This document shows, in pieces, positions 10,643-54,542 of a DNA stretch of 64,000 bases. Origin of the DNA: an uncultured Alphaproteobacteria bacterium. Lineage in GTDB: Bacteria > Pseudomonadota > Alphaproteobacteria > JAJFIK01. The stretch is from NCBI GenBank assembly GCA_964522525.1, contig CAZFWG010000001.1:36341-100340 (forward strand). Reading direction: 5' to 3'. The number at the start of each line of letters is the position of its first letter. Positions within the stretch are counted from its first letter, which is position 1. The notes beneath the pieces are model-generated. The model searched no databases. It was not told the DNA's origin and saw only the letters and a program-made list of their open reading frames with translations. The translations under genes and the position numbers were made by a program.

Positions 10643-11845
10643 TCAGCGCACGCCCGACTCGATGCGGTCGATGCGGGGCGCTTCCGTGAGACGCGGAAGC
10701 CAGTCCGTGGTGTTGAACCAGTAATCCCGGGTCTTGGTCAGGAACTGGTCCAGGCTCCGCGCCAGGATCCACGCATCCAGATAGGCCAACAGATCCGGAT
10801 TGCCCCGACGGATCCCAAAGGCAAGCGCGGTCTCGCCCAGGGGTTCATCAAGGGGCATGACGAACTGGTCCGGGGATTGGGCAACGAGCACTTCCGGAAA
10901 AGGGGAGGCGGCGATCAGGATGCCCACCTGGTTTTCAAGCAGGGCCTTTTTCGCCGCCTGGGAATCCGGGAACGGAACCAGCTGCGCCGCCGCAAGGCGT
11001 TCGGTTGCGACCCGTTCCTCGAGCGTGCCGCGCGGCACGCCGATCTGAACGGTCGAGCGGTTGAGATCGTCCAGGCTCTGAACACGGGGAATGCCCCGGC
11101 GCGCCGCCACCACATGGACGGCCCGGCGGGCATAGGGGCGGGTGAACGTCACGCTCAAGGCCCGGCTTGGGGTCACGGCATAGGCGGCGATGATGACATC
11201 GATCGCGTTGCGGGCCAGCGCGCCGATCAATTCGCCCTCGGCCAGGGGCACGACATCGACCTCGACTCCCAAATCGGCGCCGAGGGTCAGGGCGATATCG
11301 ATTTCATGGCCGATCAGGGTGCCGGCCGCGTCGCGCATGGCATAGGGGGCGAAGAGGATCGTTCCCACCCGGAGCGTGCCGCGATTGAGGATCACGTCGA
11401 ACTCATCACCCGAAGGACTGCTTGTTGGCGCCGGGGATTCGGTCGAAGCGGTTTCGTTCTGGGTCCCTTGCGCCGGCGTCTTGAACTGCCGGGGTTCGGG
11501 TTGGTCGACCGCGAAATCGGCCAGGGGATCCACGGGCGAGGGGTCCGCATCGGCATCGCTCGGCGCCTCAAGTGGCCGGCGCATCGGCAGCGGGGCATCG
11601 GCTTCGCTGTCCGGTACTGGGGTCTCTTCAGACGGAGTTGGGTCGGTTTGGGGCGAGGGAGGCAAAGGGCCTTCCGGTTCATCCTCTTGCGTCAATTGGT
11701 TCAACAGAGAATCCGCCCGGCTTGCCGAGCCCGGCGTGGCATCCGCCTCGGGTCCCGCCGCAACAGTGAGGGCCAACACCGCCAGGACGAGGATGCCCCC
11801 CTTTTGAAGGGCGGAGCAAACGACGGAGAGCGGGCAAGCGGTCAT
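10643..11845 (-). CDS. Family-3 extracellular solute-binding protein (PBPb/SBP_bac_3-like) with a signal peptide and ~130-aa Pro/Glu/Asp-rich disordered linker
   Basis: C-terminal 250 aa resemble the SBP_bac_3 / MltF N-domain (LRVGTILFAPYAMRDAAGTLIGHEIDIALTLGADLG...). Start set at MTACPL (ATG 11845) with an AAGAGGA RBS and a signal-like segment. The ORF track's alternative upstream start at 11914 lacks an RBS. Confidence 0.6.
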   Translation of the reverse strand: MTACPLSVVCSALQKGGILVLAVLALTVAAGPEADATPGSASRADSLLNQLTQEDEPEGPLPPSPQTDPTPSEETPVPDSEADAPLPMRRPLEAPSDADADPSPVDPLADFAVDQPEPRQFKTPAQGTQNETASTESPAPTSSPSGDEFDVILNRGTLRVGTILFAPYAMRDAAGTLIGHEIDIALTLGADLGVEVDVVPLAEGELIGALARNAIDVIIAAYAVTPSRALSVTFTRPYARRAVHVVAARRGIPRVQSLDDLNRSTVQIGVPRGTLEERVATERLAAAQLVPFPDSQAAKKALLENQVGILIAASPFPEVLVAQSPDQFVMPLDEPLGETALAFGIRRGNPDLLAYLDAWILARSLDQFLTKTRDYWFNTTDWLPRLTEAPRIDRIESGVR

Positions 11846-12108
11846 GACGCGCGGTCCTCTTCTTCCGGGGCCATCGGGTCGAAAGGCACACCGATTTACT
11901 CGACCGGAGGACACTAAGCCTCTTATTTAAAGATTTGAACCACTCTGGGGGTCCATCCTTGGGGCTAAGACTATTGCTACGGTCATGAGCAGCCTTGTGG
12001 TCGTGACCCGGGGGTGGATGTCCGGCAAACTGTGTCGGGGTTTTCGCGAGGCGCGGGTGGCGCGTGTCGCTTCAAAAAATGGGTCGCAACGGGCGTGAAG
12101 GTGGCGTG

Positions 12109-16226: not shown

Positions 16227-16358
16227 TTGCTGCCTGAAGATCGCCCTCGACTTTTCCGGCTTCTCGCATCCGTGTCCCTGTCCTAGACTGACTGGAAACC
16301 GGGTAATTCCGCTTCCCGGGCTAAGCGTGTCAGCGTGATGGCGATTATGGGGGTTCCT

Positions 16359-18269
16359 ATGGAAAAGCGACGTCTGTTTTGCCTTGCAGCCACGGGGCTC
16401 ATTCTTGGCCTGATGATCCGCGTGACGGATGCCGGGGCCGTTGATCCAGACCTTGATCGAACGGACGAGGCGATCGGGGCGGAATTTGAGGAATTGGGTG
16501 AGGCCCAGGAACATGTGCTCGTGCCCATGCGTGACGGGATCGGGCTTTCCACCAATATTTATCTGCCTAAGGACCGGGATGGTCCGGTACCGGCCGTGTT
16601 CTGGCGCACGCCCTATCGGTTCACGCCCTTGCGCACGACACACAAGCGCATGGCGCTCAAGGCCATGCGCCGGGGCTATGCGTTCGTGATTCAGAATGAG
16701 CGCGGCAAGTTCTTTTCGGAAGGGGAGTTCGAGATCCTCGGCTATCCGCAGACGGATGGTGTGGATGCCTTGGACTGGATCGCGGAACAGGACTGGTCCA
16801 ACGGTAAAGTGGGGACGCTCGGCTGTTCCTCGCCCGCGGAATGGCAGATGGCGCTTGCCGCCCAGGATCACCCGGCCCATGCCGCCATGGTGCCGATGGC
16901 GCCGGGGGCCGGCATCGGCAAGATGGGGCCCTATTGGGAGCAGGGAAACTGGTATCGGGGTGGGGCGGAGCAAATGTTCTATCCGCCCTGGCTCTATAGC
17001 GCCGTGCAAAGCCCGTTGCGCCCCCAATTGCCCAAGGGTCTGAGCCAGGAGGAGCGGGCGCGGCTCGCTTCCTACTACACGCTTGCGGCCAAGATGCCCG
17101 AGGTCGATTGGGCCAAGGCCATCCGCCATCTGCCCTTGAGCCGGATGATGCGGGAGGTGAAGGGGCCGCGCGGCACCTGGGATGATTATGTTTCGCGCAC
17201 GCCAGGCGATCCGGGTTGGCGTGAGGGTGGATTGTTCCATGACGACATGAAGATCGGTGTTCCGTCCTTGTGGATCTATTCCTGGTTCGACGTCTCCATC
17301 GGTCCCAATCTGGCGCTGTTCAACCATGCCCGCACCAACGCCACCGACCGTCAAACGGCGCGCGACCAGTTCATGGTGGTGGGCCCCAATCTCCATTGCG
17401 CGTTTTTCAGGGATAACAGCGATCTGACCGTTGGGGAACGGAAAATGGGCGATGCCAGTTTCGATTATGAGGAACTGATCTATGCGTTTTTCGACCGGCA
17501 TCTGAAGGGGGAGCGCAACGGGTTCCGCCGCAACAATCCGCCGGTGCGTTATTTCAATATGGGAGAGAACAAATGGCGGGAGGCGGATCAATGGCCGCCC
17601 GCCGGAACCAAGACTCGCACGCTCTATCTGACCAGCGAGGCCGGTGCCAATTCTCTCTATGGGGACGGGACGCTTGTCTCGGAAGCCCCCGAAACAGCGG
17701 CAGCGGACGGTTTCACCTATGATCCCATGAACCCGGTGCCCTCGAAGGGCGGCGGCATCTGTTGCATTGGCGATGCGGTGGAGGGCGGCGTCTTTGATCA
17801 GCGTCCCATTGAGGTGCGTCACGATGTCCTCGTCTACACGACGGCACCGTTGGAAAGCGACATGGACGTGACGGGACCCGTGGGTGTCACCCTCTATGTC
17901 TCGTCCGATGCACCGGACACGGATTTTACGGTGAAGCTGATCGATGTTCAGCCCGACGGCACGGCGTTCAATGTCGACGAAACGATCCAGCGCGTGCGCT
18001 GGCGGGAAGGGTATGACCAGGACCCGGTCTTCATGGCGGCGGGGGAGATCTATGAGGTCAGCATCCAGCCCATGGCCACGGCGACGCGGTTCAAGAAGGG
18101 CCACCGGATCCGTCTCGAGGTTTCCTCATCGAACTTTCCCCGCTTCTCCCGCAACCTGAACACGGGCGGCGCCAATTACGATGAAAGCGAACCGCGGGTT
18201 GCGAAAAACAAGGTGCATCACGGGCCGGACCATCCGTCCCGTCTGGTCCTGACGGTGGTTGAAGACTGA
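16359..18269 (+). CDS. CocE/NonD family hydrolase (Xaa-Pro dipeptidyl-peptidase S15-like alpha/beta hydrolase)
   Basis: Signal-peptide-like N-terminus MEKRRLFCLAATGLILG. CocE/NonD-like blocks (GYAFVIQNERGKF, DGVDALDWIAEQDWSNGKVGTLGCS) and a C-terminal beta-sandwich (GHRIRLEVSSSNFPRF). Start is uncertain; ATGs occur at 16335, 16347 and 16359. Confidence 0.7.
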   Translation: MEKRRLFCLAATGLILGLMIRVTDAGAVDPDLDRTDEAIGAEFEELGEAQEHVLVPMRDGIGLSTNIYLPKDRDGPVPAVFWRTPYRFTPLRTTHKRMALKAMRRGYAFVIQNERGKFFSEGEFEILGYPQTDGVDALDWIAEQDWSNGKVGTLGCSSPAEWQMALAAQDHPAHAAMVPMAPGAGIGKMGPYWEQGNWYRGGAEQMFYPPWLYSAVQSPLRPQLPKGLSQEERARLASYYTLAAKMPEVDWAKAIRHLPLSRMMREVKGPRGTWDDYVSRTPGDPGWREGGLFHDDMKIGVPSLWIYSWFDVSIGPNLALFNHARTNATDRQTARDQFMVVGPNLHCAFFRDNSDLTVGERKMGDASFDYEELIYAFFDRHLKGERNGFRRNNPPVRYFNMGENKWREADQWPPAGTKTRTLYLTSEAGANSLYGDGTLVSEAPETAAADGFTYDPMNPVPSKGGGICCIGDAVEGGVFDQRPIEVRHDVLVYTTAPLESDMDVTGPVGVTLYVSSDAPDTDFTVKLIDVQPDGTAFNVDETIQRVRWREGYDQDPVFMAAGEIYEVSIQPMATATRFKKGHRIRLEVSSSNFPRFSRNLNTGGANYDESEPRVAKNKVHHGPDHPSRLVLTVVED

Positions 18270-18681: not shown

Positions 18682-18904
18682 GGAGCACTCCAAGGGGTTG
18701 GTGGGGCCGAAGTCTAACGGGGGTACCCCATTTCCGGCCCGATCCTTGCTTCTAAATGGGAGCGAGACAATGGCGGGACGAGCATCGGCGGTATTTGACC
18801 CTGTCGATCGGGCGGTACGCAACGTGCAAGGGCGCGCCGTCTCGACGGTTTCCCGCCCCCGATGCTAGGATCCTTGGTCGGGACGAGAGTGAAGGCTGAC
18901 AGCG

Positions 18905-21658
18905 GTGATCATCTCCCACAAATACCAATTCATCTTCATTCGGACCAGCAAGACCGCTGGAACCAGCGTCGAGATCAGCCTGTCGCGGTTCTGCGGCCCC
19001 GACGATGTGGTGACGCCCCTGGACCCGGAAGAGGAATATGTCCGGCGGGACTTGGGTGTCCATCCCCGGCATTTTCTGCGTCCTCCGTTCCAGTTTCTGG
19101 CGGGCAACATGCTCAATCTCTTTCAGGTTCATCCCCCGTCCGGCCGCCTGCTGACGCGGATAGTGGGTCAGCGCTATTCCGCCTTCATGTCCGCCCGCGA
19201 GGTCAAAGCGCGGGTGGGCCCCGACATCTGGGACAGCTATACCAAATTCGCCATCGAACGGGACCCGCTCGACCGGTTGATGTCGTCCTACTATGCGGAT
19301 CTGGTGGCGGACCGGGTGCGGACCATCGACGAGTTCATGGCCCAGCCGACGCTTGAGTCCAATTTCGAGACCTATTCCCAGGACGGGGAGATCATCGTCG
19401 ACCGGATCCTGCGCTACGATCAGCTTAAAGAGGAGCTGCGGGACCTGTGTGGCCAGTTGGGCGTGCCCTTTGACGGCTGGCTGCCCCGCGCCAAGGCCAA
19501 CAACCGACGCAACAAGCGCAACTGGCGGGACTTGCTGGACGAGACGCAGATCGACCGGATCTGGTTTGAATGCGCGCGGGAATTCCGTGTCTTGAAGGAT
19601 TTGGGAGCGCCGCTTCCGGAGGAAGTCCTGCCGCTGGTCGAGCCGGCCCCGGCTCCCCGTCCCAAGGCGCCCGCAACCGAAGCGCCCCGATCGGAAACAC
19701 CAAGACCGGAAACACCCAGACCGCAGGCGCCCAAGCCGGAGAAAATCCGTCCGGCGGCACCAAAGACGCCGGCGCCCGAACCGGCCGCAACGAGACCAGC
19801 CGAAACCATCGCCAGGTCCGAGGGACCATCGGACCGGATCAATCGGAAGCCGGCCGCCGCCCCAAGCGCCGCGAAGCCGGTCCGCAAACCCGTGCGGGTG
19901 CGTCCCCAGGATCGGGCGCCCGAGCCCATTGTGGATCCTCTGCCGGCGCATCATCCGGGCCCGGCGCCCTCGGCGCCCCCATCCTCCGCGCGCGGCCAGA
20001 GCCCGCTTTCCGGGGAACTCCTGTCGGAAATCGACGCCCCCGCCCGGGATCCCGTGGTGCCCGAACCCGCGGTGGCGGAGGAACCCGCTCCCGTGCAAGG
20101 CACGCCAAAGGCGCGTCCCTGGCTTGATCCGGAACCGGCGGTGACCCCGTTGGAACGGGTCAATGGGCGGGGGGGCAAGCAAGACAAGACCGTCGCGTCC
20201 GCCGGCCGTCCGAAGACGCCGCGCCCGCCAAAGGAGCCCGTCGATCCGCTTGTGGATGTGCTGGCCGAGGTCAAGGCCGATCTGGTTCGCCCGAAGGGGC
20301 CCCTGCGGCCTGTTCCCTTGGACGAGGAGAAAGCGCCTCGGGATGGCGAGCCGTCACCGGCGGGGACCGTGTCCGAGGTGGCGGGCACGCAGGGCGGCGC
20401 CGTTGATCCCGCAGCCCCGAAATCCGCCGCCGGACCTTACGAAACCGTTGATAAGACCCTGGTCGATCACGATGCTGCGGAAATCGACGTGGCGGATGAC
20501 GGGCCCGATGGTTTTCCGGATGCGGCCGTCATGTCGAGCCTGCCGCAGGAGGAAACCGCGCCCCGTCCCCAGCCCGATGAGGGGCTGGACGCGGATGAAC
20601 TCCTCGGCTCGATCCGGGCCATTCAAGCGGTGCGCGCGGCTCAGGTGCCTGAAGGCGACGCCGTCTTGAGCTATGACGATGTGTGGCAGGGGGAGAAAAC
20701 CCCACAAGCGCCGCCGCCCGTTGAACCGGCGCCCCCCGCACGGGTCCCGGATCCGGAGCAGCGTCCGGCCCCGGTTCCCCCACAAGCTCCTGCAACGCAG
20801 CCGCCGCAAACGGACAGTGGATCGGCGCCTTTGTCCCCCTCCGCCATGATGGCCAAGGCCAAGGAAGGTCTTCCGAGCAAGGAATCTTTCCAGGCGCAGC
20901 TCAAGGCGGAGATCGAGAAATCACTGCGCAATGCCTTGAGCGAGGCTCTGGTGTCGCGCCGCATTGCCGAGGCCCTGCAAAAGCGGGTGGCCCGGAAAGA
21001 AGAACCGAGCGAAGCGGAAGAGGCGCTAAGCCAAATCGAGACAGCACCGGCGCCCCAAACTGAATCAAACGAGCCTCCCCTGTCCCGGGACGAGTCACCG
21101 TCAGCGCCCGTGCCATCGGTCCCCGAATCCAGTCCGGCCATCGCCATGCTGGAGCGTTTCCAGGAAAAATGGGCCCCGCTTTTGCGTCCGGAAACGGCAC
21201 GCGACCAAGGCAGCCAAAAGCTGAACGAGCCGCGCGCGCCGGCGCTTCCCGCCGCTTCGGGTTCGGGCCGCCCATCCGTTTCGCCGCCCCTGCAGGAAAC
21301 GCCGGTCGAGGCTTCGGCGAAGGCCGCGCCTGAGATCCAGATCGCCGCGCCGGATCCTCGACAGGTCCGGACCCAAACGGTGAAGGTCCCTCCCGCGCGC
21401 ACGCCGGGCATGTTCGATGAGACCGGGGCCGGGGGCCCGTTGACCCTGGCGCCGCCGGAACCGCCCGCTTGGCTCGATGATGACGATCTTTCCTGGTTGC
21501 CGGGATATGAATCCGACGACGAGGATGGTCCTTTCCCGGACGGGCTCGGCGGCCCGACCAGTGGTGCCGACAGCACAATGGTGACCACGGCGGCGCCCCC
21601 CGGCCAGACGGCCCCTGTGCCGGGTGTGCCCATCCTGCCGTCAACGCCCAGCAAATAA
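18905..21658 (+). CDS. NodH-like sulfotransferase domain (~250 aa) fused to a ~650-aa Pro/Ala/Glu-rich low-complexity tail
   Basis: N-terminus KYQFIFIRTSKTAGTSVE matches the PAPS 5'-phosphosulfate-binding loop of Sulfotransfer_3/NodH-type enzymes. The rest is compositionally biased (PAPEP/PRPETPRP-like repeats). It uses a GTG start. Codon usage is uniform across the whole ORF. Confidence 0.6.
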   Translation: MIISHKYQFIFIRTSKTAGTSVEISLSRFCGPDDVVTPLDPEEEYVRRDLGVHPRHFLRPPFQFLAGNMLNLFQVHPPSGRLLTRIVGQRYSAFMSAREVKARVGPDIWDSYTKFAIERDPLDRLMSSYYADLVADRVRTIDEFMAQPTLESNFETYSQDGEIIVDRILRYDQLKEELRDLCGQLGVPFDGWLPRAKANNRRNKRNWRDLLDETQIDRIWFECAREFRVLKDLGAPLPEEVLPLVEPAPAPRPKAPATEAPRSETPRPETPRPQAPKPEKIRPAAPKTPAPEPAATRPAETIARSEGPSDRINRKPAAAPSAAKPVRKPVRVRPQDRAPEPIVDPLPAHHPGPAPSAPPSSARGQSPLSGELLSEIDAPARDPVVPEPAVAEEPAPVQGTPKARPWLDPEPAVTPLERVNGRGGKQDKTVASAGRPKTPRPPKEPVDPLVDVLAEVKADLVRPKGPLRPVPLDEEKAPRDGEPSPAGTVSEVAGTQGGAVDPAAPKSAAGPYETVDKTLVDHDAAEIDVADDGPDGFPDAAVMSSLPQEETAPRPQPDEGLDADELLGSIRAIQAVRAAQVPEGDAVLSYDDVWQGEKTPQAPPPVEPAPPARVPDPEQRPAPVPPQAPATQPPQTDSGSAPLSPSAMMAKAKEGLPSKESFQAQLKAEIEKSLRNALSEALVSRRIAEALQKRVARKEEPSEAEEALSQIETAPAPQTESNEPPLSRDESPSAPVPSVPESSPAIAMLERFQEKWAPLLRPETARDQGSQKLNEPRAPALPAASGSGRPSVSPPLQETPVEASAKAAPEIQIAAPDPRQVRTQTVKVPPARTPGMFDETGAGGPLTLAPPEPPAWLDDDDLSWLPGYESDDEDGPFPDGLGGPTSGADSTMVTTAAPPGQTAPVPGVPILPSTPSK

Positions 21659-21715
21659 GATCGCTGGGGCCAATAAGGCAATTTAGAAGGATTTCTGCCT
21701 ACCTTCTCGGAAAAC

Positions 21716-21751
21716 GGGGAGGACGCGTCGAGGCGTCCGTCCCCTGTTTTT
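21716..21751 (+). terminator. Putative rho-independent terminator between the sulfotransferase and the histidine kinase
   Basis: Stem GGGGAGGACGC / GCGTCC(G)TCCCC with one bulge, followed by TGTTTTT. Confidence 0.5.
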
Positions 21752-21767
21752 CGGGAGTGCCTTTGCC

Positions 21768-23579
21768 ATGATACGGAGGCTGTGGGCCGGCTGGCTGGGC
21801 TGGATCGACCGTTTCGCGGTCGAAGGCGCCGGTGAGGACTTCGTCGCAATCGTCCGTTACCGGACTTTGGCGACGACCAGCCTGCTGATTACCCTCCTCA
21901 TGCTGCCGAGCCCCGTCCGAGGCTACTTCGTGCTTGACCTGCCGGACTGGGTCGTGGGCTATCATGTCCTGTGTCTGCTCATGGTCGCGGCCGCCATGCC
22001 CACGATGGTCTTGACACGACACATTATATGGCCGACGACACAGATTGTGGCCGGCTTATATCTTTCCGTGATCGAAACAGGCCTGCGGGCCGGCGGTCTT
22101 GACGGCGCCACATCCCAGATCCTGGCTATTCTTCCCCTGGCCGCCGGTCTGATGCTGGGTATGCGCTATTGCCTCATTTGTGGTCTGATCGTTGTCTTGA
22201 CTTATGGCTTTTTGTTCTATGTTTCCGTCAGTCTTCCCGCCGCACCAATGGCCTCACCGTCCAGCGGGCCGGGCAGACAACTCCTCTACTATGTGATCGT
22301 CACCCTCGGCATCACCGGTTTCACCTTTGCGCTTCTTCTGATCCTGAAACATGCTGTCCGCTCTCTCGAGCAGGCCAGGGACATCGCCGATGCGGCCAAT
22401 CGGCAAAAATCCGAGTTCCTCGCCAATATGAGCCATGAAATCCGGACACCCATGAACGGCGTTCTGGGACTGCTCCATATTGCCCGTGAGAAGAACGCAT
22501 CGCCGGACGTCGGCGACCTGTTGGACGACGCCCATGCAAGTGCGGGTCTGCTGCTGGACATCATCAATGACATCCTGGATTTCTCGAAGCTGGAAGCTGG
22601 CTGTATGGCCATCCACGCCCGGCCCTTCGCGTTCAAGGAGACGGTCCGGCGGGTCGCCGCCCTCGTGAAGCCGAAAGCGGTCGAGAAGGGGCTCGATTTC
22701 CGGATCTCCTTTGACGCTGACATCCCCCCGTGCCTCATCGGAGACGAGACGCGACTTCAGCAGATCCTTTTCAATATCCTGGGCAACGCCGTCAAATTCA
22801 CGGATCAGGGCCGGGTCGATCTGCGGGTCACCGCGTTTGAGATCCAGGCGGAGCACGTCTCGCTGCGTATGGAGGTTGAGGATACGGGGCCCGGCCTTTC
22901 CGATTTCGACCGATCAAGGGTGTTTGAACGGTTTACCCAAGTCGATTCATCGGTGACTAAGACCAAAGGCGGCACGGGCCTGGGCCTTGCGATCTGCAAG
23001 CAGTTGGTGGATCTCATGGACGGGCGGATCGGTGTGGCCAGCCGGGAGGGCGAGGGGAGCTTGTTCTGGATAGAGATCACCCTGCCCATCGATCATGTCG
23101 GGGACATTCAACATCAGGACGAGACCAGCGTTGCATCGGGGGGACGGGCACTCCGGATATTGGTCGCCGAAGACAATATGATCAATCAGAAGATCATCGT
23201 TCTGATGCTGGAGAGTCTTGGGTTTGAACCGCCGATCCTCGTGGAGGACGGTCAGGCAGCCCTCGATATGCTGGGGACGAATGAGTTTGACGTGGCCCTT
23301 CTTGATATTCAGATGCCGACCAAGGACGGGTTGACCGTCGCCCGAGAGGCGCGTGCCCGATTGCAGAACGTCCCGCCCCTGATTGCCGTGACCGCCAATG
23401 CGATGGCCGGGGATGAAGAACGCTATTTGGACAATGGTTTTGACGGTTATGTCTCAAAACCCTTGAGTGCCCAGGCCCTCTGGACGGAGATCACCCGGGT
23501 CACTTGCGCATCGCGCAGCGTCGCTCAGCCGGGCAGGTCGCACAGTCAAGATCCGCCTGGAAGCCGCTCCGTTGCATGA
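21768..23579 (+). CDS. Hybrid sensor histidine kinase/response regulator (membrane-embedded sensor, HisKA, HATPase_c, C-terminal receiver)
   Basis: About six N-terminal TM helices. H-box ANMSHEIRTPMNG. N/G boxes LGNAVKFT and GGTGLGLAICK. Receiver domain has LVAEDN...DVALLDIQMP...VSKP. Confidence 0.8.
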   Translation: MIRRLWAGWLGWIDRFAVEGAGEDFVAIVRYRTLATTSLLITLLMLPSPVRGYFVLDLPDWVVGYHVLCLLMVAAAMPTMVLTRHIIWPTTQIVAGLYLSVIETGLRAGGLDGATSQILAILPLAAGLMLGMRYCLICGLIVVLTYGFLFYVSVSLPAAPMASPSSGPGRQLLYYVIVTLGITGFTFALLLILKHAVRSLEQARDIADAANRQKSEFLANMSHEIRTPMNGVLGLLHIAREKNASPDVGDLLDDAHASAGLLLDIINDILDFSKLEAGCMAIHARPFAFKETVRRVAALVKPKAVEKGLDFRISFDADIPPCLIGDETRLQQILFNILGNAVKFTDQGRVDLRVTAFEIQAEHVSLRMEVEDTGPGLSDFDRSRVFERFTQVDSSVTKTKGGTGLGLAICKQLVDLMDGRIGVASREGEGSLFWIEITLPIDHVGDIQHQDETSVASGGRALRILVAEDNMINQKIIVLMLESLGFEPPILVEDGQAALDMLGTNEFDVALLDIQMPTKDGLTVAREARARLQNVPPLIAVTANAMAGDEERYLDNGFDGYVSKPLSAQALWTEITRVTCASRSVAQPGRSHSQDPPGSRSVA

Positions 23580-23604: not shown

Positions 23605-24354
23605 CTAGAGCCGTCGAACGCTTTCGGGATCAATCCGAAAACGGAGAATGGCGCCGGCCTGTTCCAATTGGCCGGATGCCTCGATGGGATCCGCCACATA
23701 CCGCAGGAGCGAGTCCGGCATCGGATTGCCATCCGGATCGGTGATCAGAGCATTCGTGAAGCCGTTTTCGTGGCGCACAACGAAATGGGGCGGCACGCCC
23801 CCGATCAGGCAGAGCGTGGCGCAGGCCTTGTGAGCCTTCCCCGCGCCGGGCTTCATGACACCCAGAAAGCATTTGCTGTCGACAATTTCCCCACGGATCG
23901 TCCGAGGTCCAAGGCTTTCGATGAGGAGGGGCGTGACGCCCGACGTGCCGAAGGCGGTAATCGCCTCGTCGCCGTCAATGAACTCGATCGAGACGCGCCC
24001 CTGGCGCTCGATATAGAAGCCCTGAACCCGAACACGCTGGTCTTCGAGACCTTCGACCCGATCCTCCACGCCCAGTTTCCCAGTGGAAATCAGAGTGGCG
24101 ACTTTCTCGACACCGTCTTCCGTGTAGAACAGCATCGGGTAGGGGATGCGGCGCAGGGTTCCTTCGAAGGTCCGCGCCTCATCGCTGAGCCACCGACCGG
24201 TGCCGGGATCCTGCTGGGCGCCCGCGAGAAGGACGGCAAGGCCCGCGCTGGCCCCGAACAGGAATGCGGTCAGGATCATCATGGAGATGGCAAGACCGCG
24301 TGGCATGGGGGCAAGGCCGATATAGAACGGGCTTTCCGATGTCTTCTCTGCCAT
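23605..24354 (-). CDS. Membrane-anchored hypothetical protein with a C-x15-C-x3-C motif; last gene of the Rieske operon
   Basis: One N-terminal TM helix (AISMMILTAFLFGASAGLAVLLA). Contains CFLGVMKPGAGKAHKACATLC. GGAGGGA RBS before the ATG at 24354. Lies 10 nt downstream of the FRD-Rieske gene. Confidence 0.5.
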   Translation of the reverse strand: MAEKTSESPFYIGLAPMPRGLAISMMILTAFLFGASAGLAVLLAGAQQDPGTGRWLSDEARTFEGTLRRIPYPMLFYTEDGVEKVATLISTGKLGVEDRVEGLEDQRVRVQGFYIERQGRVSIEFIDGDEAITAFGTSGVTPLLIESLGPRTIRGEIVDSKCFLGVMKPGAGKAHKACATLCLIGGVPPHFVVRHENGFTNALITDPDGNPMPDSLLRYVADPIEASGQLEQAGAILRFRIDPESVRRL

Positions 24355-24366
24355 CACTCCCTCCGT

Positions 24367-25425
24367 CTACGCGCCATTCGGTGAAGCTGGGATCACGGCG
24401 GGTGCCTCCGGTGTGCCCGGCGGATTGGCTTTGGCATTGACCCAGACGATGCCGTCCTGAATGCCCACGCGATAGGTCGCAATCTTTTCCTGGTAGGGCG
24501 GCGGGGATTGCCCGCTTTCCGGCAGATATTGGTAGCCGTGCCAGGGACAGGTGATGCAGCCGTCGACGACGCGCCCTTCACCCAGGGGGCCGTTCTGATG
24601 GGCACAGACATTGCTGACGGCGGCGATCTTTCCGTCATATCGGAAGACGGCGATGCTGTCTTCGGGCCGGTGGATGATCTTGGCACGGTTGTTCGCGATA
24701 CTGTCGATGGGACCGACCTCGATCCACTCCTCGTCGATCACGGGGGAAACCCGGTCCGCGAAGGCCCGGCTCGTGCTGGTGATCAGGTGAAGCCCGCCGA
24801 CCCAGATGACGCTGCCCGCCAAAAGAGCCCAATAGGTCATGGACACTTCGTCCTGAAGAATGCCGAGTGCGATATGGACGCACAATGCCGCATAGGCGAC
24901 ATAGACGAACATATGAAGCGCCTTCCACAAGGGCGGCGACAGATTGGCGAGCCAGAAATCATGACTGGTCGCCGCCATCACGAACAAGACGATCAGCGCG
25001 AAGAACCCGAAGACTTCAAAGGGAATGACGGCGGTGGTCGAATAGTCCGCACTGGTGGCAAACAGGGAGACCAGAGGGCTGAGCACGCCGAAGCCGTGAT
25101 ACCATCCGAGGGCGATCACAAAATGGAAAAGCGCGATGAAGAAGGTGACCACACCGAAATGGCGCCGATTGTACAGCAGCGGCAGGAAGACCGTATTGAG
25201 TCGCGCCAGCGGACCGATGGACAGGATGATGGTCAGCATCAGGAAGGCACAGGTACCGAGCGCCCGGATCGCCATGATCGGCGGGCTGATCTCGTGGCCG
25301 GGTTCGGCGGTCAGAATGGAGACGACCATGAAGGTGACGAGATAGAGAACCACGCCCAGGCCCAGAAACAGATCATAGATCTTCTTGTTCCGGTTCCAGA
25401 GAACCATATTGTATCCGACGGCCAT
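24367..25425 (-). CDS. Fusion of a ferric-reductase-like (FRD/MsrQ-type) di-heme transmembrane domain with a C-terminal Rieske [2Fe-2S] domain
   Basis: Six predicted TM helices with two H-x12-H pairs on separate helices (RRHFGVVTFFIALFH and LHMFVYVAYAALCVH), the bis-His heme-b ligation pattern of FRD domains. The C-terminus has Rieske boxes CAHQNGPL and CPWHGYQY. Strong GGAGGGAG RBS. Confidence 0.7.
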   Translation of the reverse strand: MAVGYNMVLWNRNKKIYDLFLGLGVVLYLVTFMVVSILTAEPGHEISPPIMAIRALGTCAFLMLTIILSIGPLARLNTVFLPLLYNRRHFGVVTFFIALFHFVIALGWYHGFGVLSPLVSLFATSADYSTTAVIPFEVFGFFALIVLFVMAATSHDFWLANLSPPLWKALHMFVYVAYAALCVHIALGILQDEVSMTYWALLAGSVIWVGGLHLITSTSRAFADRVSPVIDEEWIEVGPIDSIANNRAKIIHRPEDSIAVFRYDGKIAAVSNVCAHQNGPLGEGRVVDGCITCPWHGYQYLPESGQSPPPYQEKIATYRVGIQDGIVWVNAKANPPGTPEAPAVIPASPNGA

Positions 25426-25468
25426 GGTGTCTCCCTCCGATCCGCGGTCCTCCGCGGTCTGTCAGCAG

Positions 25469-25917: not shown

Positions 25918-26511
25918 TCAGGAAGGAAGCGGCAGCGCTTCGTTCCGTTCAAGGTGTAATGCGTTGCGGCTTCCCGTTGTCCGCCAGAGGGCGGCCGCCA
26001 GAAGCACGCCGTATCCGGCCTGTATCCAGGGCGAAAGACCCGCCCATTGCCGCGCGGTCTCGGGCGCCATGCCCAGCAGCATGAACAGGCCCCCCGATTG
26101 ATCCGTACCGACACAGTGGCCGAGCAGGCCGGGGCCCACGGCGATGACGAGCCCGAACGCCGCCAGGACCATGAGGCTTGCCCGGTTGGTTTCGATGGCG
26201 CGCGCCCATGCAAGACCCATCAACACCGCAAGGCCCACGGACAGAACCACCTGGGTCAGGGTCACCGCATAGGAACGTTCCACGGGCATGCGGGCGGCAA
26301 GGTCGATCTCAAAAACGGGCAGGGCCCAGATCACTGCAGGATCCAAGACATGGAGCGTGGGCCAGGCCCGCCACAGGGGGGCGTCGAAAGCAAGCCGCAG
26401 GCTGCCGATTTCGCCATAGACAAAGAGCGCCGCCACCAGACCCGGCAGGGTGAAAACCGCATAAAGCGCCAACAGCACAAGGCCGAGGCGCACGGTCAGG
26501 CGCTCCGTCAT
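25918..26511 (-). CDS. Integral membrane protein (~197 aa, 5-6 TM helices), function unknown
   Basis: Start MTERLTV, whose ATG overlaps the TGA of the upstream Rieske-TPP gene (ATATGA). The upstream 39 codons of the ORF look non-coding. Confidence 0.5.
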   Translation of the reverse strand: MTERLTVRLGLVLLALYAVFTLPGLVAALFVYGEIGSLRLAFDAPLWRAWPTLHVLDPAVIWALPVFEIDLAARMPVERSYAVTLTQVVLSVGLAVLMGLAWARAIETNRASLMVLAAFGLVIAVGPGLLGHCVGTDQSGGLFMLLGMAPETARQWAGLSPWIQAGYGVLLAAALWRTTGSRNALHLERNEALPLPS

Positions 26512-28511
26512 ATCAGTTCCACATCCTGCATGATCTCGATCAAGGCGGGCTTGTCGCTCGCCAGCCCCTTGGCGAAAGCATCCTTCAGTTCCTCGCGCTG
26601 CGTGACCCGGATGCCGAGGCCTCCGCACAGGGTCGCATAGTCCGCAAAGGAAGGGTTATGCAGACTGGTCTGCCAGACCGGCCATTGTCCGGCCCGCTGT
26701 TCCTTGGAAATCTTGCCCAGTTCGCTGTTGTTGAGCAGGATATGGGTGATGTTCATGCCGTATTTCACGGCCGTGGTGAATTCGGCCATATACTGACCAA
26801 ACCCGCCATCGCCACTGATCGACACCACTTTGCGGTCGGGGCCGCCCGGCGCCGTGCCGGCCTTGACCGCGCACCAGGCGCCAAGTGCCGCCGGAAAGGC
26901 AAAGCCGATCGAGCCCAGATAGCCGGACATCAAGACGGCCTGGTGTTTGGGCTCGAAATAGCGGCCGAAGGAATAGGTGTTGTTGCCCACATCGACGGCG
27001 ATGACGGCATCATCCGGTATCGTATCATTGAGAACGTCGAACACCGCGGCCGCGGAAAGGCCCTTGCCCAGATCATCCGTCAGGCGGCGTTTTTTCTCCT
27101 CCCGCCAGATGCGCCAGCGTTCGGCGATTTCATCGCGCTGATCCACCCGGTCGGCGGTACCGTCAAGGGCGCCGCACATCAGATCGGCCGTGACCCCCAC
27201 TTCGCCCCAGACCGGCGCATGGACCATGTGAAACTTGCCCAGCGCCATCTGGTCGAAATCGACCTGGATCAGGATCTTGGAGGTGGAAATACCGGTGTGG
27301 TCGGAAAACGAGGCCCCGAAAACACAGATCACGTCGGCTTCATTCATGAACCAACTGGCGATCGGCGTCCCGCTGCGCCCCAACACGCCGGCGGCGAGGG
27401 GGTGGGCGTCGGGGATCTGGCCCTTGCCCTTGAAGGTCGTTAGGACAGGCGCGTTCAGACGCTCGGCCAGGGCGATGATCTTGTCCATGGCCGTGCGCGC
27501 GCCATAGCCCACGACGATGATCGGCCGTTTGGCGGCGTTCAGGAAACGCATGGCCTGATCGAGGGCGTCGGGCGCCGGGGCGATATGGGGGTCGCCGATC
27601 CGGCCCTTGGGGTTCGAGGGCCGGGCTTTTTCATCCGCCTTCTGAACCTGGACTTCATCGGGGAAGATCAGATGGGCCACGTCGCGTTTGATGGTGGCGT
27701 GTTTGAGCGCGAGCGTCATCAGCTCCGCATGATCCGAGTTCTGCAAGGTCGTCTGGCTGAAGGTGGCCACGGGCGCGAAGGCGGAGGCCAGATCGATTTC
27801 CTGGAAGGCGCCGGGGCCGAAAACCTGGGTGTTGACCTGGCCGGTCAAGGCCAGGACCGGGGCCCGGTCGACCTTGGCATCCCATAGGCCCGTGAGCAGA
27901 TTGGTGGCGCCCGGCCCCGCGATCGCCAGACAGGCGGCGGGCTTGCCCGACAATTTGGCATAGCCGGAACAGGCAAAGGACGCCGCCCCTTCATGGCGAA
28001 TGCCGATATAGCTGAGATGGCCCGCGTCCTCTTCCCGGCGCAGGGCATCGGCCAGACCCAGATTGGAATGGCCCACCATGCCGAAGACATGGGTGACCCC
28101 CCAACGGGTCATGGTCTGGGCCATGATATCGCTGACCGTCGTTTCATGGGGTCCGCGCCCCGGCACGCCGACATAGATCCCGTCTTCCCGTTCCTCCACG
28201 GGAAAGGTGTCGATGCCGTCATCATGACCGCCGGGCGAGGTGCCGTCCCGGGGGTCAAAGTCCCAGCCATGCCAGGGGCAGCGCAACCAGCACCGGCCTT
28301 CGGCGCCGGTCTCGATCGAGCCTTCGCCCAAGGGACCACCCTGGTGGGGGCAGCGGTTGTCGACCGCCCAATGACGGCCCTCGAATTTGGACAGGGCCAC
28401 CGATGTGGTACCGGCGGTCGCGCTCTTGACGCGGCCCTCGTCCAACTCATCGAGCTCGGCCACCTTGTGCCATTCGAGGTCCGGGTTTGGGGCGGCGCCT
28501 TTGGTGCTCAT
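26508..28511 (-). CDS. N-terminal Rieske [2Fe-2S] domain fused to a thiamine-pyrophosphate-dependent enzyme (acetolactate synthase/pyruvate oxidase family)
   Basis: Rieske boxes CPHQGGPL and CPWHGWDF in the first ~110 aa. Then TPP_enzyme_N (GVTHVFGMVGHSNL), central and C-terminal TPP-binding domains (GSIGFAFPAALGA, ISGDGGFGQY). 667 aa. Confidence 0.75.
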   Translation of the reverse strand: MSTKGAAPNPDLEWHKVAELDELDEGRVKSATAGTTSVALSKFEGRHWAVDNRCPHQGGPLGEGSIETGAEGRCWLRCPWHGWDFDPRDGTSPGGHDDGIDTFPVEEREDGIYVGVPGRGPHETTVSDIMAQTMTRWGVTHVFGMVGHSNLGLADALRREEDAGHLSYIGIRHEGAASFACSGYAKLSGKPAACLAIAGPGATNLLTGLWDAKVDRAPVLALTGQVNTQVFGPGAFQEIDLASAFAPVATFSQTTLQNSDHAELMTLALKHATIKRDVAHLIFPDEVQVQKADEKARPSNPKGRIGDPHIAPAPDALDQAMRFLNAAKRPIIVVGYGARTAMDKIIALAERLNAPVLTTFKGKGQIPDAHPLAAGVLGRSGTPIASWFMNEADVICVFGASFSDHTGISTSKILIQVDFDQMALGKFHMVHAPVWGEVGVTADLMCGALDGTADRVDQRDEIAERWRIWREEKKRRLTDDLGKGLSAAAVFDVLNDTIPDDAVIAVDVGNNTYSFGRYFEPKHQAVLMSGYLGSIGFAFPAALGAWCAVKAGTAPGGPDRKVVSISGDGGFGQYMAEFTTAVKYGMNITHILLNNSELGKISKEQRAGQWPVWQTSLHNPSFADYATLCGGLGIRVTQREELKDAFAKGLASDKPALIEIMQDVELI

Positions 28512-28689
28512 CAGGGACGGTCCTTTCGGTCGTTTCTTGACCCTTCACAGATTATGTTTCCCACGGTCATGCCCCGGGCGTCACCAGTTTACCATTGTAA
28601 AAAATGCGCGATCACAGAAAACAACTTGTCGTAAGCGGTTGAGACGGTCGAGCATGGCGCTCCCGGCGGTCACAAGGAGAGAATGCCCC

Positions 28690-30306
28690 ATGAAGAATCG
28701 CATCGCGATCGCCCAATGGGATGAATTGAAAGATCGGGATCCGACCTATGCCTGTGTGGCGAATGTGGATCTTGTGATCATTCGTTACGACAATCAGGTA
28801 TCGGTCCTTTACGGACGATGTCTGCATCGGGGTGCTCTCCTGGCCGATGGGCATATTCGCGGTGAGGACCTGATCTGTGGTGTACATAATTGGGATTATC
28901 GCTACGACACGGGCGTCAGCGCCTACAACAATGAAGAGGTCCTGCAGAAATTCACGACCGAGATCGATTCGGGCTATGTTTATGTGGATGCGGACGAGAT
29001 CGCGGCGTGGGAAAAGGACCATCCCCAGCCCTATGACCGTCAGGCCTATCTTGGTCTCTATGCGGATACGCAAGGGACGCCGGACGAACCGCACACCGCG
29101 TTCATCCAGGAACTCGCCAATCATGGCCTGAAACGGGTGGGCCACCACGGGCCCATGGCGGCCATGGGCGTGCCCTTTCACACCCTTCCCCAGTGGGACG
29201 ACATTCAATTCGTCACGGCCCAGTTGCACCGTTTCCCGCTGCTTGATGAGGATCCGGTGGCGAGCGACGTGGTGATCGGCCCCAAGGCCAGACGGCCCCT
29301 CAAACTCGACATTCCCTTGCTGGTCTCGGATATGAGCTTCGGGGCGCTCTCCCAGGAAGCCAAGCTCGCCCTCGCCAAGGGCGCGGACGACGCGGGCACG
29401 GGCATCTGCTCGGGCGAGGGCGGCATGCTGCCCGAGGAGCAGGAAGCCAATCGGCGCTATTTCTATGAGCTGGCCTCGGCCCGTTTCGGCTTTTCCTGGG
29501 ACGCGGTTGGTAAGGTTCAGGCTTTCCATTTCAAGGGAGGTCAGGGCGCCAAGACCGGCACCGGCGGCCATGTGCCGGGCAGCAAAGTCACGGGCAAGGT
29601 GGCGCAGGTGCGCGGTCTTCAGGAGGGGGAGCCCGCGGTCTCGCCGGCCCGTTTTCCCGACTGGACCGAGCTGCGCCAGATCCGGGATTTCGCCGAGGAA
29701 GTGCGCGAGCGCACCGGCGGTATTCCCATCGGCTACAAGCTTTCCGCGCAGCAGGTGGAAAAGGACATCGACGCGGCGCTCAAGGTCGGTGTCGACTACA
29801 TCATCCTCGACGGCCGGGGCGGCGGCACCGGTGCCGCGCCGACCCTGTTTCGGGACCACATCGCCGTGCCCACGATTCCGGCCCTGGCCCGGGCCCGGCG
29901 CCATCTCGACCATCTGGGCTGTGCCCATGTCACGCTGATCGTGACCGGGGGCCTGCGCACGCCGGCCGATTTCGCCAAGGCGCTGGCGCTGGGGGCCGAC
30001 GCCATTGCCCTTTCCAACGCGGCGATGATGGCCATCGGCTGTCTGGCCATGCGGGCCTGCAACACCAACAACTGTCCCGTCGGTATTACCTCCATGAAGG
30101 ACCATCTCAGGGCGCGCCTTGAGATCGAGGCCTCGGCCCGTCGATTGCACAATTTTTTCGAAGCCTCGGTCGATCTTATGAAGGTAATGGCAAGGGCCTG
30201 CGGTCATCATCATTTGGGGGACTTCTGTCTTGAGGACTTGGTCACCTGGAAGGATGACGTGGCAAAGCTGACGGGCGTTCCCTATGGCGGCGTGGGGCGC
30301 TCATAG
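28690..30306 (+). CDS. N-terminal Rieske-type [2Fe-2S] domain fused to an FMN-binding glutamate-synthase-family (GltS FMN) domain
   Basis: Rieske-like boxes CLHRGALL and CGVHNWDY. Then the Glu_synthase-type FMN/Fe-S barrel (SDMSFGALS, GEGG, KVAQ..GQGAKTGTGGHVPG, ILDGRGGGTGAAP). AAGGAGAG RBS 9 nt before the ATG at 28690. The 101 in-frame codons upstream were rejected. Confidence 0.75.
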   Translation: MKNRIAIAQWDELKDRDPTYACVANVDLVIIRYDNQVSVLYGRCLHRGALLADGHIRGEDLICGVHNWDYRYDTGVSAYNNEEVLQKFTTEIDSGYVYVDADEIAAWEKDHPQPYDRQAYLGLYADTQGTPDEPHTAFIQELANHGLKRVGHHGPMAAMGVPFHTLPQWDDIQFVTAQLHRFPLLDEDPVASDVVIGPKARRPLKLDIPLLVSDMSFGALSQEAKLALAKGADDAGTGICSGEGGMLPEEQEANRRYFYELASARFGFSWDAVGKVQAFHFKGGQGAKTGTGGHVPGSKVTGKVAQVRGLQEGEPAVSPARFPDWTELRQIRDFAEEVRERTGGIPIGYKLSAQQVEKDIDAALKVGVDYIILDGRGGGTGAAPTLFRDHIAVPTIPALARARRHLDHLGCAHVTLIVTGGLRTPADFAKALALGADAIALSNAAMMAIGCLAMRACNTNNCPVGITSMKDHLRARLEIEASARRLHNFFEASVDLMKVMARACGHHHLGDFCLEDLVTWKDDVAKLTGVPYGGVGRS

Positions 30307-54175: not shown

Positions 54176-54542
54176 GCTGTCCCCGGTCAATCAGATGTGA
54201 GCCCCCATCGGTCCTGACGCATCCCGGCTGCCCAAACCTTAAGGCTCGGCGCCGAGCGGCCACGGCCGACAAGCGCGCCCAACCCCTTAGAAGGCGCCAA
54301 ACTCATCGGTTACGTCCATCGCACGCTTGGTGGCGGAGACTGTTGTCTCGAATTGGTAAAGAGGGGATTAACCGGTGACCCGAAACGGAACGCTTACGCG
54401 TGTAGCATGGTGGTAGCGACACGTTCATGGTGTGGCCATCAGGGGCATCAGGCAGGCTGCGTCAGCGCCGATCGATGCCTGATCCAGATCTTCATGGTAG
54501 GGATGAGAAAACGATCTCCCCTCAAGAATAAGGAGCCTGCCC

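Follow-up and report, generated by a model that had tools for sequence, protein, structure and literature searches.

We identified a gene in an uncultured alphaproteobacterium that encodes a sulfotransferase-fold domain (the head) fused to a very long tail in one polypeptide. The tail is translated in the same frame as the head and carries four short conserved islands in an invariant order, separated by spacers that vary in sequence and individual length but hardly in summed length. In addition, the head has lost a histidine that is otherwise universal in its family, and the protein carries no export signal. On balance, we think it probable that the protein is a cytoplasmic PAPS-binding head, with catalysis altered or lost, on a disordered scaffold with docking motifs in the style of RNase E. 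The gene lies in a 64,000-nucleotide stretch of DNA, referred to here as the window, and its features are collected in Table 1.

Table 1. Features of the gene and its 3' flank, in window coordinates.
Feature	Coordinates	Strand	Residues	Evidence or remark
Whole gene, sulfotransferase-fold head and long tail	18905..21658	+	917 aa	GTG start, TAA stop; ORF listing
Sulfotransfer_2 (PF03567) domain	18905..19600	+	1-232
5'-PSB PAPS-binding loop, R13-T-S-K16-T-A-G-T-S21-V-E23	18941..18973	+		Invariant columns
Codon 94, TTC (Phe), at the family His position	19184..19186	+	94	Column count H 120, F 1
3'-phosphate-binding motif, R119-D-P121-L-D-R124-L-M-S127 (PxxRxxS)	19259..19285	+		Conserved columns
Junction motif, L-G-A-P-L-P-E-E-V-L-P-L-V	19601..19639	+	233-245	Just past the end of standalone homologues
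Degenerate second copy of island 1, SPLSGELLSEIDA	20000..20038	+	366-378	Regular-expression match; window protein only
Island 1, EPVDPLVDVLAEVKADLVR	20234..20290	+	444-462	63-89% identical; flanking spacers 14-28%
Island 2, PQPDEGLDADELLGSIRAIQAVRAAQ	20567..20644	+	555-580	50-96% identical; predicted helix 563-577; codon-position test
Island 3, ESFQAQLKAEIEKSLRNALSEALVSRRIA	20882..20968	+	660-688	62-90% identical; predicted helix 659-696
Island 4, acidic/tryptophan motif, PPEPPAWLDDDDLSWLP	21452..21502	+	850-866	82-94% identical
Intrinsic terminator, 3' of the stop codon	21704..21757	+		-36.9 kcal/mol, z=-5.12

Reading frame, orthologues and relatives

The gene is one continuous ORF, and three positional orthologues were found in other alphaproteobacterial MAGs. 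These proteins are 920, 928 and 940 aa long with tails of 676–696 aa, which shows the architecture to be conserved among orthologues, and their loci have the SBP-TonB receptor-hisI-gene synteny in common. The neighborhood includes hisI, a TonB receptor and a hybrid kinase, and contains no polysaccharide, PAPS-synthesis or secretion genes, giving no clue to function or partners. The GTG start proposed in a sequence-only reading of this DNA is supported by the N-terminus (MIISHKYQFIF...), which aligns position by position with those of the homologues shown and of the three orthologues; the three orthologues likewise begin with GTG. The terminator proposed in that reading is also present; none of 200 shuffled sequences folded as stably, and a U-run lies on its 3' side.

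A frameshift, which would have placed the tail in another frame or gene, is excluded by an independent assembly and by the orthologues. In the Logan assembly of SRR6462995, which matches this DNA at 99.94% identity across 4998 nt, the frame is likewise open and the protein differs at one residue; the frame of the ~680-codon tail is also open in all three diverged orthologues. When coding scores were computed per 300-nt segment, the sense frame was best or tied for best in every segment. The score falls to about zero in parts of the tail, and the antisense frames tie with the sense frame only in two weak tail segments, with no frame clearly better anywhere. Synonymous codon usage in the tail tracks that of the genome. 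The gene is overlapped on the other strand by two ORFs, 18752–20182 (476 aa) and 20671–21849 (392 aa). We regard both as GC-rich shadows, as their scores do not exceed those of the sense frame and substitutions fall in the sense codon phase.

A tail of this size is as unusual as it had appeared from the sequence. Among the matches listed, the other homologues are 208–290 aa long with the exception of P0002 (340 aa), and the relatives inspected in genomes and metagenomes are 201–236 aa long with the exception of a two-domain 501-aa protein from Leisingera. A metagenome scan recovered only standalone relatives of ~230 aa, whose identity across the complete domain did not exceed 41%; it added no protein to the tailed group. 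A search with the full-length protein against 5.8 billion proteins returned a near-identical copy alone, from a list of at most 8000 candidates that was swamped by low-complexity words.

The closest relative outside the giant-tail clade (the window protein and its three orthologues) is P0002, from GCA_964561475.1, whose head is 52% identical. It shares C116T, N120D, W122L and the junction motif with the clade; at the junction the four orthologues agree fully at L233, G234, A235, P238, L242, P243 and L244, and the motif is weakly recognizable in P0002. The P0002 tail is Pro/Glu-rich, is only ~100 aa long, and may end in a degenerate island-4-like sequence, EPPTNDDWN. However, P0002 keeps His94, lacks islands 1–3 and lies in another genomic context. 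It appears to represent an earlier step in the build-up of the head-tail architecture.

The sulfotransferase-fold head and residue 94

The match of the head to Sulfotransfer_2 (PF03567) exceeds the Pfam cut-off of 22 bits, with the domain by itself reaching 28.5 bits and the whole protein 23.2 bits. All four giant-tail proteins match this family, the sole Pfam family found at E ≤ 10, and the head has the features of the sulfotransferase alpha/beta fold. The window protein has 971 homologues at E ≤ 0.001, and nearly all of those listed carry PF03567. The sequence-only reading had described the head as NodH-like. NodH is likewise of the PAPS-dependent bacterial sulfotransferase type with a P-loop-like PSB motif; however, it belongs to Sulfotransfer_3 (PF13469) and has an RxG PSB motif (PMC11625862), while the head has KTAG and does not match PF13469. 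The description therefore does not hold.

The PAPS-binding-loop-like segment FIRTSKTAGTS, picked out in the same reading, does prove to be the 5'-PSB loop of the Sulfotransfer_2 domain. This feature is defined by a strand-loop-helix in which a conserved lysine (with a glycine) has a catalytic role (PMC11625862). K16, T17, S21 and E23 are invariant in all 121 aligned family sequences. The 3'-phosphate-binding region aligns to the RNPKDxxxS motif of SULT1C3 and has the form PxxRxxS, the PF03567 consensus of the 3'-PB strand-turn-helix (PMC11625862). Here no family sequence departs from R119 or S127, and 120 of 121 have P121. The residues that contact PAPS (K16, T17, S21, R119 and S127) are all kept in the head, and all four giant-tail proteins retain 11 of the 13 family-invariant residues.

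Standalone bacterial PF03567 proteins of ~230 aa, which databases label 'sulfotransferase family 2 domain-containing protein', occur in cyanobacteria, Halomonadaceae, Bacillales and the Roseobacter group and are 35–46% identical over ~90% of the head. They share with it the MIISHKY N-terminus, the KTAGTS PSB loop and the PxxRxxS motif. However, they have no tail, and position 94 is histidine in each of the 120 other family sequences aligned. The giant-tail proteins are the only four in which it is lost, being replaced by Phe, Phe, Phe and Tyr (codons TTC, TTC, TTT and TAC), and the loss coincides with the acquisition of the giant tail.

The SULT enzymes have a catalytic triad of K44, H99 and S129 (PMC8134075), and the 33-aa spacing from residue 94 to S127 resembles that of the triad. 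By its position, which is like that of SULT His99/108, His94 is the probable catalytic base of the family. Alternatively, the base may be E44, which is 99% conserved and occupies an NST/3-OST-like position. Both E44 and H5 are retained in the head as possible alternative bases. Mouse SULT2A8 resembles the head in that a hydrophobic residue (Leu99) replaces the canonical histidine while the PSB lysine and PB serine are kept (PMC8134075). However, this enzyme belongs to another family (Sulfotransfer_1), and its substitute, His48 in the PSB loop, was found by experiment (PMC8134075), while no such substitute was identified in the window head. Because the otherwise universal His94 is replaced by Phe, the chemistry of the head would be altered, either with the base relocated as in mouse SULT2A8 or with the head serving as a PAPS/PAP-binding module with little turnover.

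A stronger version of the second option is that the protein is a pseudo-sulfotransferase, transferring no sulfate, whose head senses PAPS or PAP and whose tail assembles or releases partners. We consider this possible but unlikely. His94 was lost solely in the giant-tail clade, as the tail grew from ~100 aa in P0002 to ~680 aa, the PAPS-binding residues are strictly retained, and pseudoenzymes that still bind ligands are common (PMC5106787). However, nearly all other invariant residues are kept as well, including Lys16 and the probable acceptor-site residues H5, E23, E44, Y112, Y157 and E226, which exceeds the needs of a pure nucleotide binder, and SULT2A8 is active without the canonical histidine (PMC8134075).

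Islands and spacers of the tail

The tail (~670–680 aa) consists of 19% Pro, 15% Ala and 9% Glu and has no Cys. Across the four tails Pro makes up 12–19% and Ala 15–25%, and order-promoting residues account for 16–19% compared with 39–40% in the heads. The tail has no match in Pfam, NCBIfam or the PDB sequences. Composition and the lack of domain matches agree with the earlier description of a low-complexity tail without a globular domain; however, the tail is not featureless, as it contains the four conserved islands. The spacers appear to be disordered. The charge-hydropathy plot is borderline, placing two of the four tails just on the 'ordered' side. A single-sequence AF2 model of the full-length protein has tail helices solely at islands 2 and 3 and in two short extra segments; we used it for helix positions and not as a measure of disorder, as even the head is poorly modeled (pLDDT 40.5) and low tail pLDDT is uninformative in this respect. 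Short tandem repeats in the spacers are lineage-specific, with ETPRP occurring twice in the window protein, AEPYAP four times in L005, and SPENGP in L003. Acid-flanked tyrosines were considered as possible sulfo-tyrosine-like self-substrate sites and rejected, as their signal is inconsistent, being significant in three tails and absent in L005, and their positions are unconserved.

Among the four orthologues the islands are 50–96% identical and about as conserved as the head domain. The spacers are 14–28% identical, which is the level of shuffled controls, with the exception of spacer L1 (54% in the close pair L003/L004). Differences within the islands fall at codon positions 1, 2 and 3 in the numbers 105, 95 and 255, with 168 synonymous codon changes. 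This third-position bias and synonymous turnover show that the islands are under purifying selection at the protein level. Island 1 is amphipathic (muH 0.45), and its substitutions are mostly synonymous or at third positions; its degenerate second copy in the window protein was aligned by MAFFT to island 1 of the orthologues. Island 3 is the highest-confidence part of the full-length AF2 model, has the strongest hydrophobic moment of the tail, and alone contributes 39–44 bits in the island profile. In island 4, EPPAWLDDDD-x-SWLP is invariant despite swaps between the serine codons TCC and AGC.

An exhaustive phmmer search with the tail against 1.84 billion representatives recovered the tail itself alone, at a database size where true orthologous tails would score E~0.3–0.65. 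A profile of the islands only found nothing, P0001 being missed too although the profile gives the window protein 105 bits locally, and nothing among PDB sequences at E ≤ 10. A PVDPLAD 7-mer in the neighboring SBP_bac_3 protein is a coincidence, as it is absent from the orthologues of that protein, which is periplasmic. Island 2 (ELLxSIRxI) has some resemblance to PopZ (Pfam DUF2497), which has a MEEILASIRRI-type helix at the N-terminus and an oligomerization domain at the C-terminus. DDDDWSWL of island 4 fits the motif of LC3-interacting regions (LIRs), an acidic W-x-x-L. Neither reading has a supporting profile match, and membership in PopZ was rejected as no Pfam family besides PF03567 is found at E ≤ 10 and the island profile has no PDB match at that threshold.

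Single spacers vary about two-fold in length, but their summed length is 582–605 aa, with an SD of 10 compared with 83 expected under independence. This compensation is significant by permutation (p=0.003, or p=0.015 with three lineages) for four sequences, two of which are close relatives. It bears on whether the protein could be an ordinary active sulfotransferase with a passive tail, such as an entropic bristle, spacer or solubility tag, in which the islands are structural remnants. Between the orthologue loci the head is 60–64% identical and the neighboring housekeeping genes 64–68%, so the head evolves at their rate, and the spacer sequence is unconstrained, both of which would suit a passive tail. 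However, a passive tail would explain neither the invariant island order nor the constant total length, nor why the islands match the enzyme domain in conservation and show synonymous turnover at the codon level, making this reading improbable.

PAPS is a cytoplasmic cofactor. The protein lacks both a signal peptide and any hydrophobic stretch of 15 or more residues, and the best reading of these absent export signals is a cytoplasmic location. A cell-envelope-anchored or periplasm-spanning tether, suggested earlier, is unsupported because there is neither a signal peptide nor a membrane segment, the N-terminus is the catalytic strand-loop-helix, and PAPS is cytoplasmic. A Pro-rich tether of the TonB/TolA type was rejected as well, as the N-terminal anchor or signal is lacking and no C-terminal domain is seen by Pfam, PDB or AF2.

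Effectors typically have long disordered regions with short linear motifs, and the acidic run followed by W-S-W-L in island 4 could point to a secreted effector for a eukaryotic host, with eukaryote-type motifs in its tail. We regard this as highly improbable. The protein has no signal peptide, no type III, IV or VI secretion genes occur within the 64-kb window, the gene content of the window is that of a free-living motile heterotroph, and the head requires cytoplasmic PAPS. Finally, that the tail is an annotation or assembly artefact (a frameshift, an erroneous fusion or a GC-rich shadow ORF) is scarcely credible since, although long spurious ORFs arise in high-GC DNA, antisense ORFs overlap the gene and coding scores are near zero in parts of the tail, two independent assemblies agree, and in four diverged lineages the frame is open, the islands are in frame and substitutions are biased to third positions.

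Comparison with known disordered scaffolds

Long disordered regions are uncommon among bacterial proteins. The well-understood ones, in RNase E, FtsZ and PopZ, are organizers of major cellular machines, and in the FtsZ linker it is the properties and not the exact sequence that count for function. In RNase E, conserved microdomains (SLiMs/MoRFs) lie amid freely evolving spacers (PMC4435900, PMC11964227). Like the window protein, RNase E combines an enzyme at its N-terminus with a long disordered region of biased composition that includes tandem repeats. However, the enzyme is a different one and there is no sequence relationship, so the likeness is one of mechanism and not of family membership, and no membrane-targeting or RNA-binding motif was identified in the window tail. 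The window tail does show a biased non-globular region, lineage-specific repeats and ordered motifs amid unconserved spacers, which place it with RNase E-type disordered scaffolds as a functional class rather than a homology family. FtsZ similarly has a disordered linker of variable sequence, followed by a short conserved C-terminal peptide that binds partners (10.1101/171280, PMC9586301). However, the FtsZ linker is much shorter and leads to a single motif at the terminus, whereas the window protein has its four motifs inside a tail with ~590 aa of spacer. In the literature searched there is no report of such a head-tail architecture for bacterial sulfotransferases.

In the RNase E-style reading that we favor, the head (aa 1–232) would be a PAPS-dependent sulfotransferase fold that keeps its PAPS contacts and has Phe in place of His94. 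The tail (aa ~233–917) would be an acidic, Pro/Ala-rich, non-globular chain acting as a scaffold or tether. Its four conserved motifs, three of them helix-forming and the fourth the acidic-tryptophan EPPAWLDDDDxSWLP, would be docking sites that bind partners, set apart by spacers that evolve freely while their lengths add up to a nearly constant total of about 590 aa. A more speculative form of this idea, which we put forward with considerable doubt, is that a PAPS/PAP-sensing head, non-catalytic or re-wired, sits on a ~680-residue disordered 'ruler' whose motifs assemble a cytoplasmic multiprotein hub. The total length of the ruler would then be under stabilizing selection, and the protein may be a degradosome-like organizer that links sulfur/nucleotide status to the assembly or localization of its partners.

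The window protein would be a natural example of the logic of RNase E, FtsZ and PopZ on another enzyme fold. It offers a simple system for testing directly how selection acts on the length of a disordered region and how an enzyme fold becomes a binding or regulatory module. For the giant-tail clade, the label 'sulfotransferase family protein' may mislead.

A sulfotransferase head fused to a giant tail

The window encodes a 917-amino-acid protein in which a sulfotransferase head (aa 1-232) and a very long low-complexity tail share one reading frame. The sequence-only reading had described this fusion, with a GTG start and a downstream terminator (see table), and the observation is confirmed; the fusion is real. 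When codon usage is scored per 300-nt segment, the annotated frame is best or tied-best in every segment, and the synonymous codons of the tail track genome preferences (CCC/CCG, GCC/GCG, AAG, CAG) with a weaker bias. An independent Logan assembly (SRR6462995) is 99.94% identical to the window over 4998 nt. The 3 differences all lie in the tail; 2 are synonymous and 1 is V397A. They fall at 20008, 20062 and 20094, spanning 87 nt in a tail spacer (L1), which suggests strain-level variation concentrated in this spacer.

The tail is also present in related genomes. A scan of GTDB species genomes identified three relatives in uncultured alphaproteobacterial MAGs (loci L003, L004 and L005), with heads 60-64% identical and single ORFs of 920, 928 and 940 aa, so that the sample of the giant-tail family consists of four species-level genomes and one near-identical contig. 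The order SBP_bac_3 protein, DUF3011 protein, TonB-dependent receptor, hisI and giant-tail gene is conserved, as is a 250-aa protein further downstream, and neighbouring genes are 64-68% identical between loci. Based on this shared order, the three relatives are positional orthologues. The tail is translated, since an untranslated stretch could not, at such divergence, stay open for ~680 codons across four lineages.

The N-terminus (MIISHKYQFIF) matches residue for residue those of the homologues shown, and the orthologues begin with MIISHKYQFIFIRT, GTG-encoded in 3/3; the GTG start is thus correct. Two antisense ORFs overlap the gene, at 18752-20182 (-) (476 aa) and 20671-21849 (-) (392 aa). 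Neither outscores the sense frame, and substitutions keep to the codon phase of the sense strand; these are GC-rich shadow ORFs and not genes.

Features of the giant-tail gene (nucleotide positions in the window) and islands of its product (amino-acid positions)
Feature	Position	Strand	Sequence	Details
Giant-tail sulfotransferase gene	18905..21658	+		single ORF, 917 codons, GTG start
Terminator hairpin	21704-21757	+		-36.9 kcal/mol, z=-5.1, U-rich 3' side
Island I1	aa 444-462		EPVDPLVDVLAEVKADLVR	63-89% identity between orthologues
Island I2	aa 555-580		PQPDEGLDADELLGSIRAIQAVRAAQ	50-96% identity between orthologues
Island I3	aa 660-688		ESFQAQLKAEIEKSLRNALSEALVSRRIA	62-90% identity between orthologues
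Island I4	aa 850-866		PPEPPAWLDDDDLSWLP	82-94% identity between orthologues

Head family and position 94

Profile searches match the head to Sulfotransfer_2 (PF03567) alone among the Pfam sulfotransferase families, in the window protein and in all orthologues (4/4). The head carries both features that define this family (PMC11625862), the lysine of the 5' PAPS-binding (PSB) loop (K16 within KTAGTS) and the 3'-phosphate motif PxxRxxS (P121-R124-S127). The earlier label "NodH-like" does not fit, as NodH is a member of PF13469 with an RxG PSB motif (PMC11625862). We found 971 head homologues; almost every match listed is a standalone protein of ~230 aa, with cyanobacteria, Halomonadaceae and Bacillales among the sources. 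A distant homologue in Leisingera sp. ANG1 (L010 6001-7503, ~35% identity, 501 aa) bears a different extension on the same head fold, consisting of a short Pro/Ala linker and a second, apparently globular C-terminal domain.

Across 119 homologues outside the giant-tail clade, 13 positions are 100% invariant. The four giant-tail proteins retain 11 of these, the exceptions being His94, replaced by Phe, Phe, Phe and Tyr (codons TTC, TTC, TTT, TAC), and K197, which is Arg in 3/4. The closest protein outside the clade (P0002, 340 aa, GCA_964561475.1), with a head 52% identical and a tail of ~100 aa, keeps His94. In a head model from a 121-sequence alignment (pLDDT 88.9, pTM 0.84), position 94 is in a confidently modelled loop ahead of helix 97-111, preceding R119 by 25 residues and S127 by 33. 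The order K16/His94/S127 is the same as in the canonical SULT catalytic triad K44/H99/S129, where His and Ser are 30 rather than 33 residues apart (PMC8134075), and a profile alignment of the head to SULT1C3 anchors the RNPxDxxxS region. From this order and spacing, His94 is, by position only, probably the catalytic base in the family. A further residue, E44 (99% conserved, 28 residues past K16), is at the position of the Glu base in NST, 3-OST and TPST. Mouse SULT2A8 likewise lacks the canonical His, which is Leu, and is active, another His having taken over the role (PMC8134075). The giant-tail head may have either re-wired catalysis or become a PAPS/PAP binder with little turnover.

Conserved islands in a variable tail

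Pro makes up 19% of the tail (aa ~247-917), Ala 15% and Glu 9%; the net charge is about -28, and there are 13 aromatics, no Cys and no hydrophobic run of >=15 residues. The DNA of the tail holds no tandem-repeat array, only one 15-nt unit at ~2 copies. Alignment of the four orthologues defines four islands in invariant order, conserved on a par with the head (60-88% identical); the junction motif LGAP[IL]PxEVLPLP after the head is conserved as well. The most amphipathic tail segments include I1 and I3. Island differences among orthologues number 105/95/255 at codon positions 1/2/3, and 168 codon changes are synonymous, TCC/AGC serine swaps included; this is purifying selection at the protein level in the annotated frame, far from the enzyme domain. 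The island motifs were found neither in the rest of the 64-kb window nor in any fetched locus. The SBP_bac_3 protein (10646-11926 (-)) has a signal peptide and then a ~130-aa acidic Pro-rich linker with PVDPLAD, a 7-mer of island 1; this match is apparently coincidental, the L003/L004 orthologues having D[LG]GFxFD there.

Spacers are 14-28% identical among orthologues, the same as composition-matched shuffles, except for L1 of the close pair L003/L004 (54%). They are Pro-rich in the window protein, Ala/Gly/Asp-rich with Tyr/His patches in the MAG orthologues, and bear short lineage-specific repeats. Single spacer lengths differ ~two-fold (106-199, 92-194, 79-178, 107-189 aa). However, their sums are 582, 585, 593 and 605 aa, with an SD of 10 vs 83 expected under independent variation (permutation p=0.003 with four sequences, p=0.015 with three independent lineages), which suggests, in this small sample of four, stabilising selection on total tail length. 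From composition, non-conservation and indel turnover we infer that the spacers are disordered; a charge-hydropathy test of the tails is borderline. A single-sequence AF2 model of the full-length protein, which is poor, has the tail as coil except for helices 563-577 (I2), 659-696 (I3) and two short segments.

Tail tyrosines are often acid-flanked (window 3/3 with D/E at +1, p=0.004; L004 p=0.0002; L003 p=0.018; L005 not significant). The pattern is similar to that of tyrosine-sulfation sites, although the tyrosines are not at conserved positions. Elsewhere in the window, a sigma-54 activator (52529-54190 (-); receiver, AAA+ and HTH_8 domains) has a low-complexity linker of ~100 aa, rich in Pro, Ala and Ser, that separates the AAA+ lid from the DNA-binding domain.

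Location, context and possible role

The window protein begins at the catalytic strand-loop-helix; neither a signal peptide nor a membrane segment is present. PAPS is cytoplasmic, and on all these grounds the protein is predicted to be cytoplasmic too. Of the sequence-only interpretation the fused low-complexity tail stands, but the envelope anchor or periplasm-spanning tether is, like the NodH label, not supported. With TonB receptors, a P450, MacB/HlyD efflux, beta-oxidation enzymes, MotA and pyruvate kinase among its gene products, the 64-kb window resembles an ordinary chromosomal region from a motile, free-living heterotroph. Genes for PAPS synthesis, polysaccharides or effector secretion were not found within it.

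Two genes that flank the locus in the window (16335-18269 (+) and 21768-23579 (+)), an S15 X-Pro dipeptidyl-peptidase and a hybrid histidine kinase, are additional to the synteny conserved among the orthologous loci; L004 (8824-10887 (-)) and L005 (7082-9067 (-)) instead have a large downstream gene, patatin-like by eye. The 250-aa protein at 23605-24357 (-) has no Pfam match and is 52-60% identical to those downstream in L004 and L005. Three Rieske [2Fe-2S] fusion proteins lie within 6 kb (24370-25461 (-), 26511-28544 (-), 28375-30303 (+)), paired with a ferric-reductase-type membrane domain, a full TPP-enzyme (N/M/C) and a glutamate-synthase/FMN-dehydrogenase domain; these combinations are unusual.

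In RNase E, the catalytic N-terminal domain leads into a disordered region of biased composition that contains repeats, and conserved microdomains embedded in this C-terminal scaffold bind partners (PMC4435900, PMC11964227). The giant tail has the same conservation pattern, and by this analogy we lean towards the tail serving as a tether or scaffold. The four motifs would act as docking sites for partners or determine where the head is localised, the total reach of the tail would be under constraint, and the contribution of the head would be PAPS-linked chemistry or sensing. A purely non-catalytic sensor-scaffold, for which the loss of His94 speaks and against which the 11 retained positions count, is a weaker candidate. 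A passive tail, suggested by the spacers, sits poorly with the islands and is improbable. A secreted effector is very unlikely for a protein of this predicted location, and an artefact, with the frame open in four lineages, is hardly credible.

Full-text search turned up no paper in the searched library on a tail of this kind in any bacterial sulfotransferase, a scope that is not proof of novelty. The finding amounts to a Sulfotransfer_2-fold protein that joins a putative disordered scaffold bearing conserved motifs to a head that has lost an otherwise invariant histidine.
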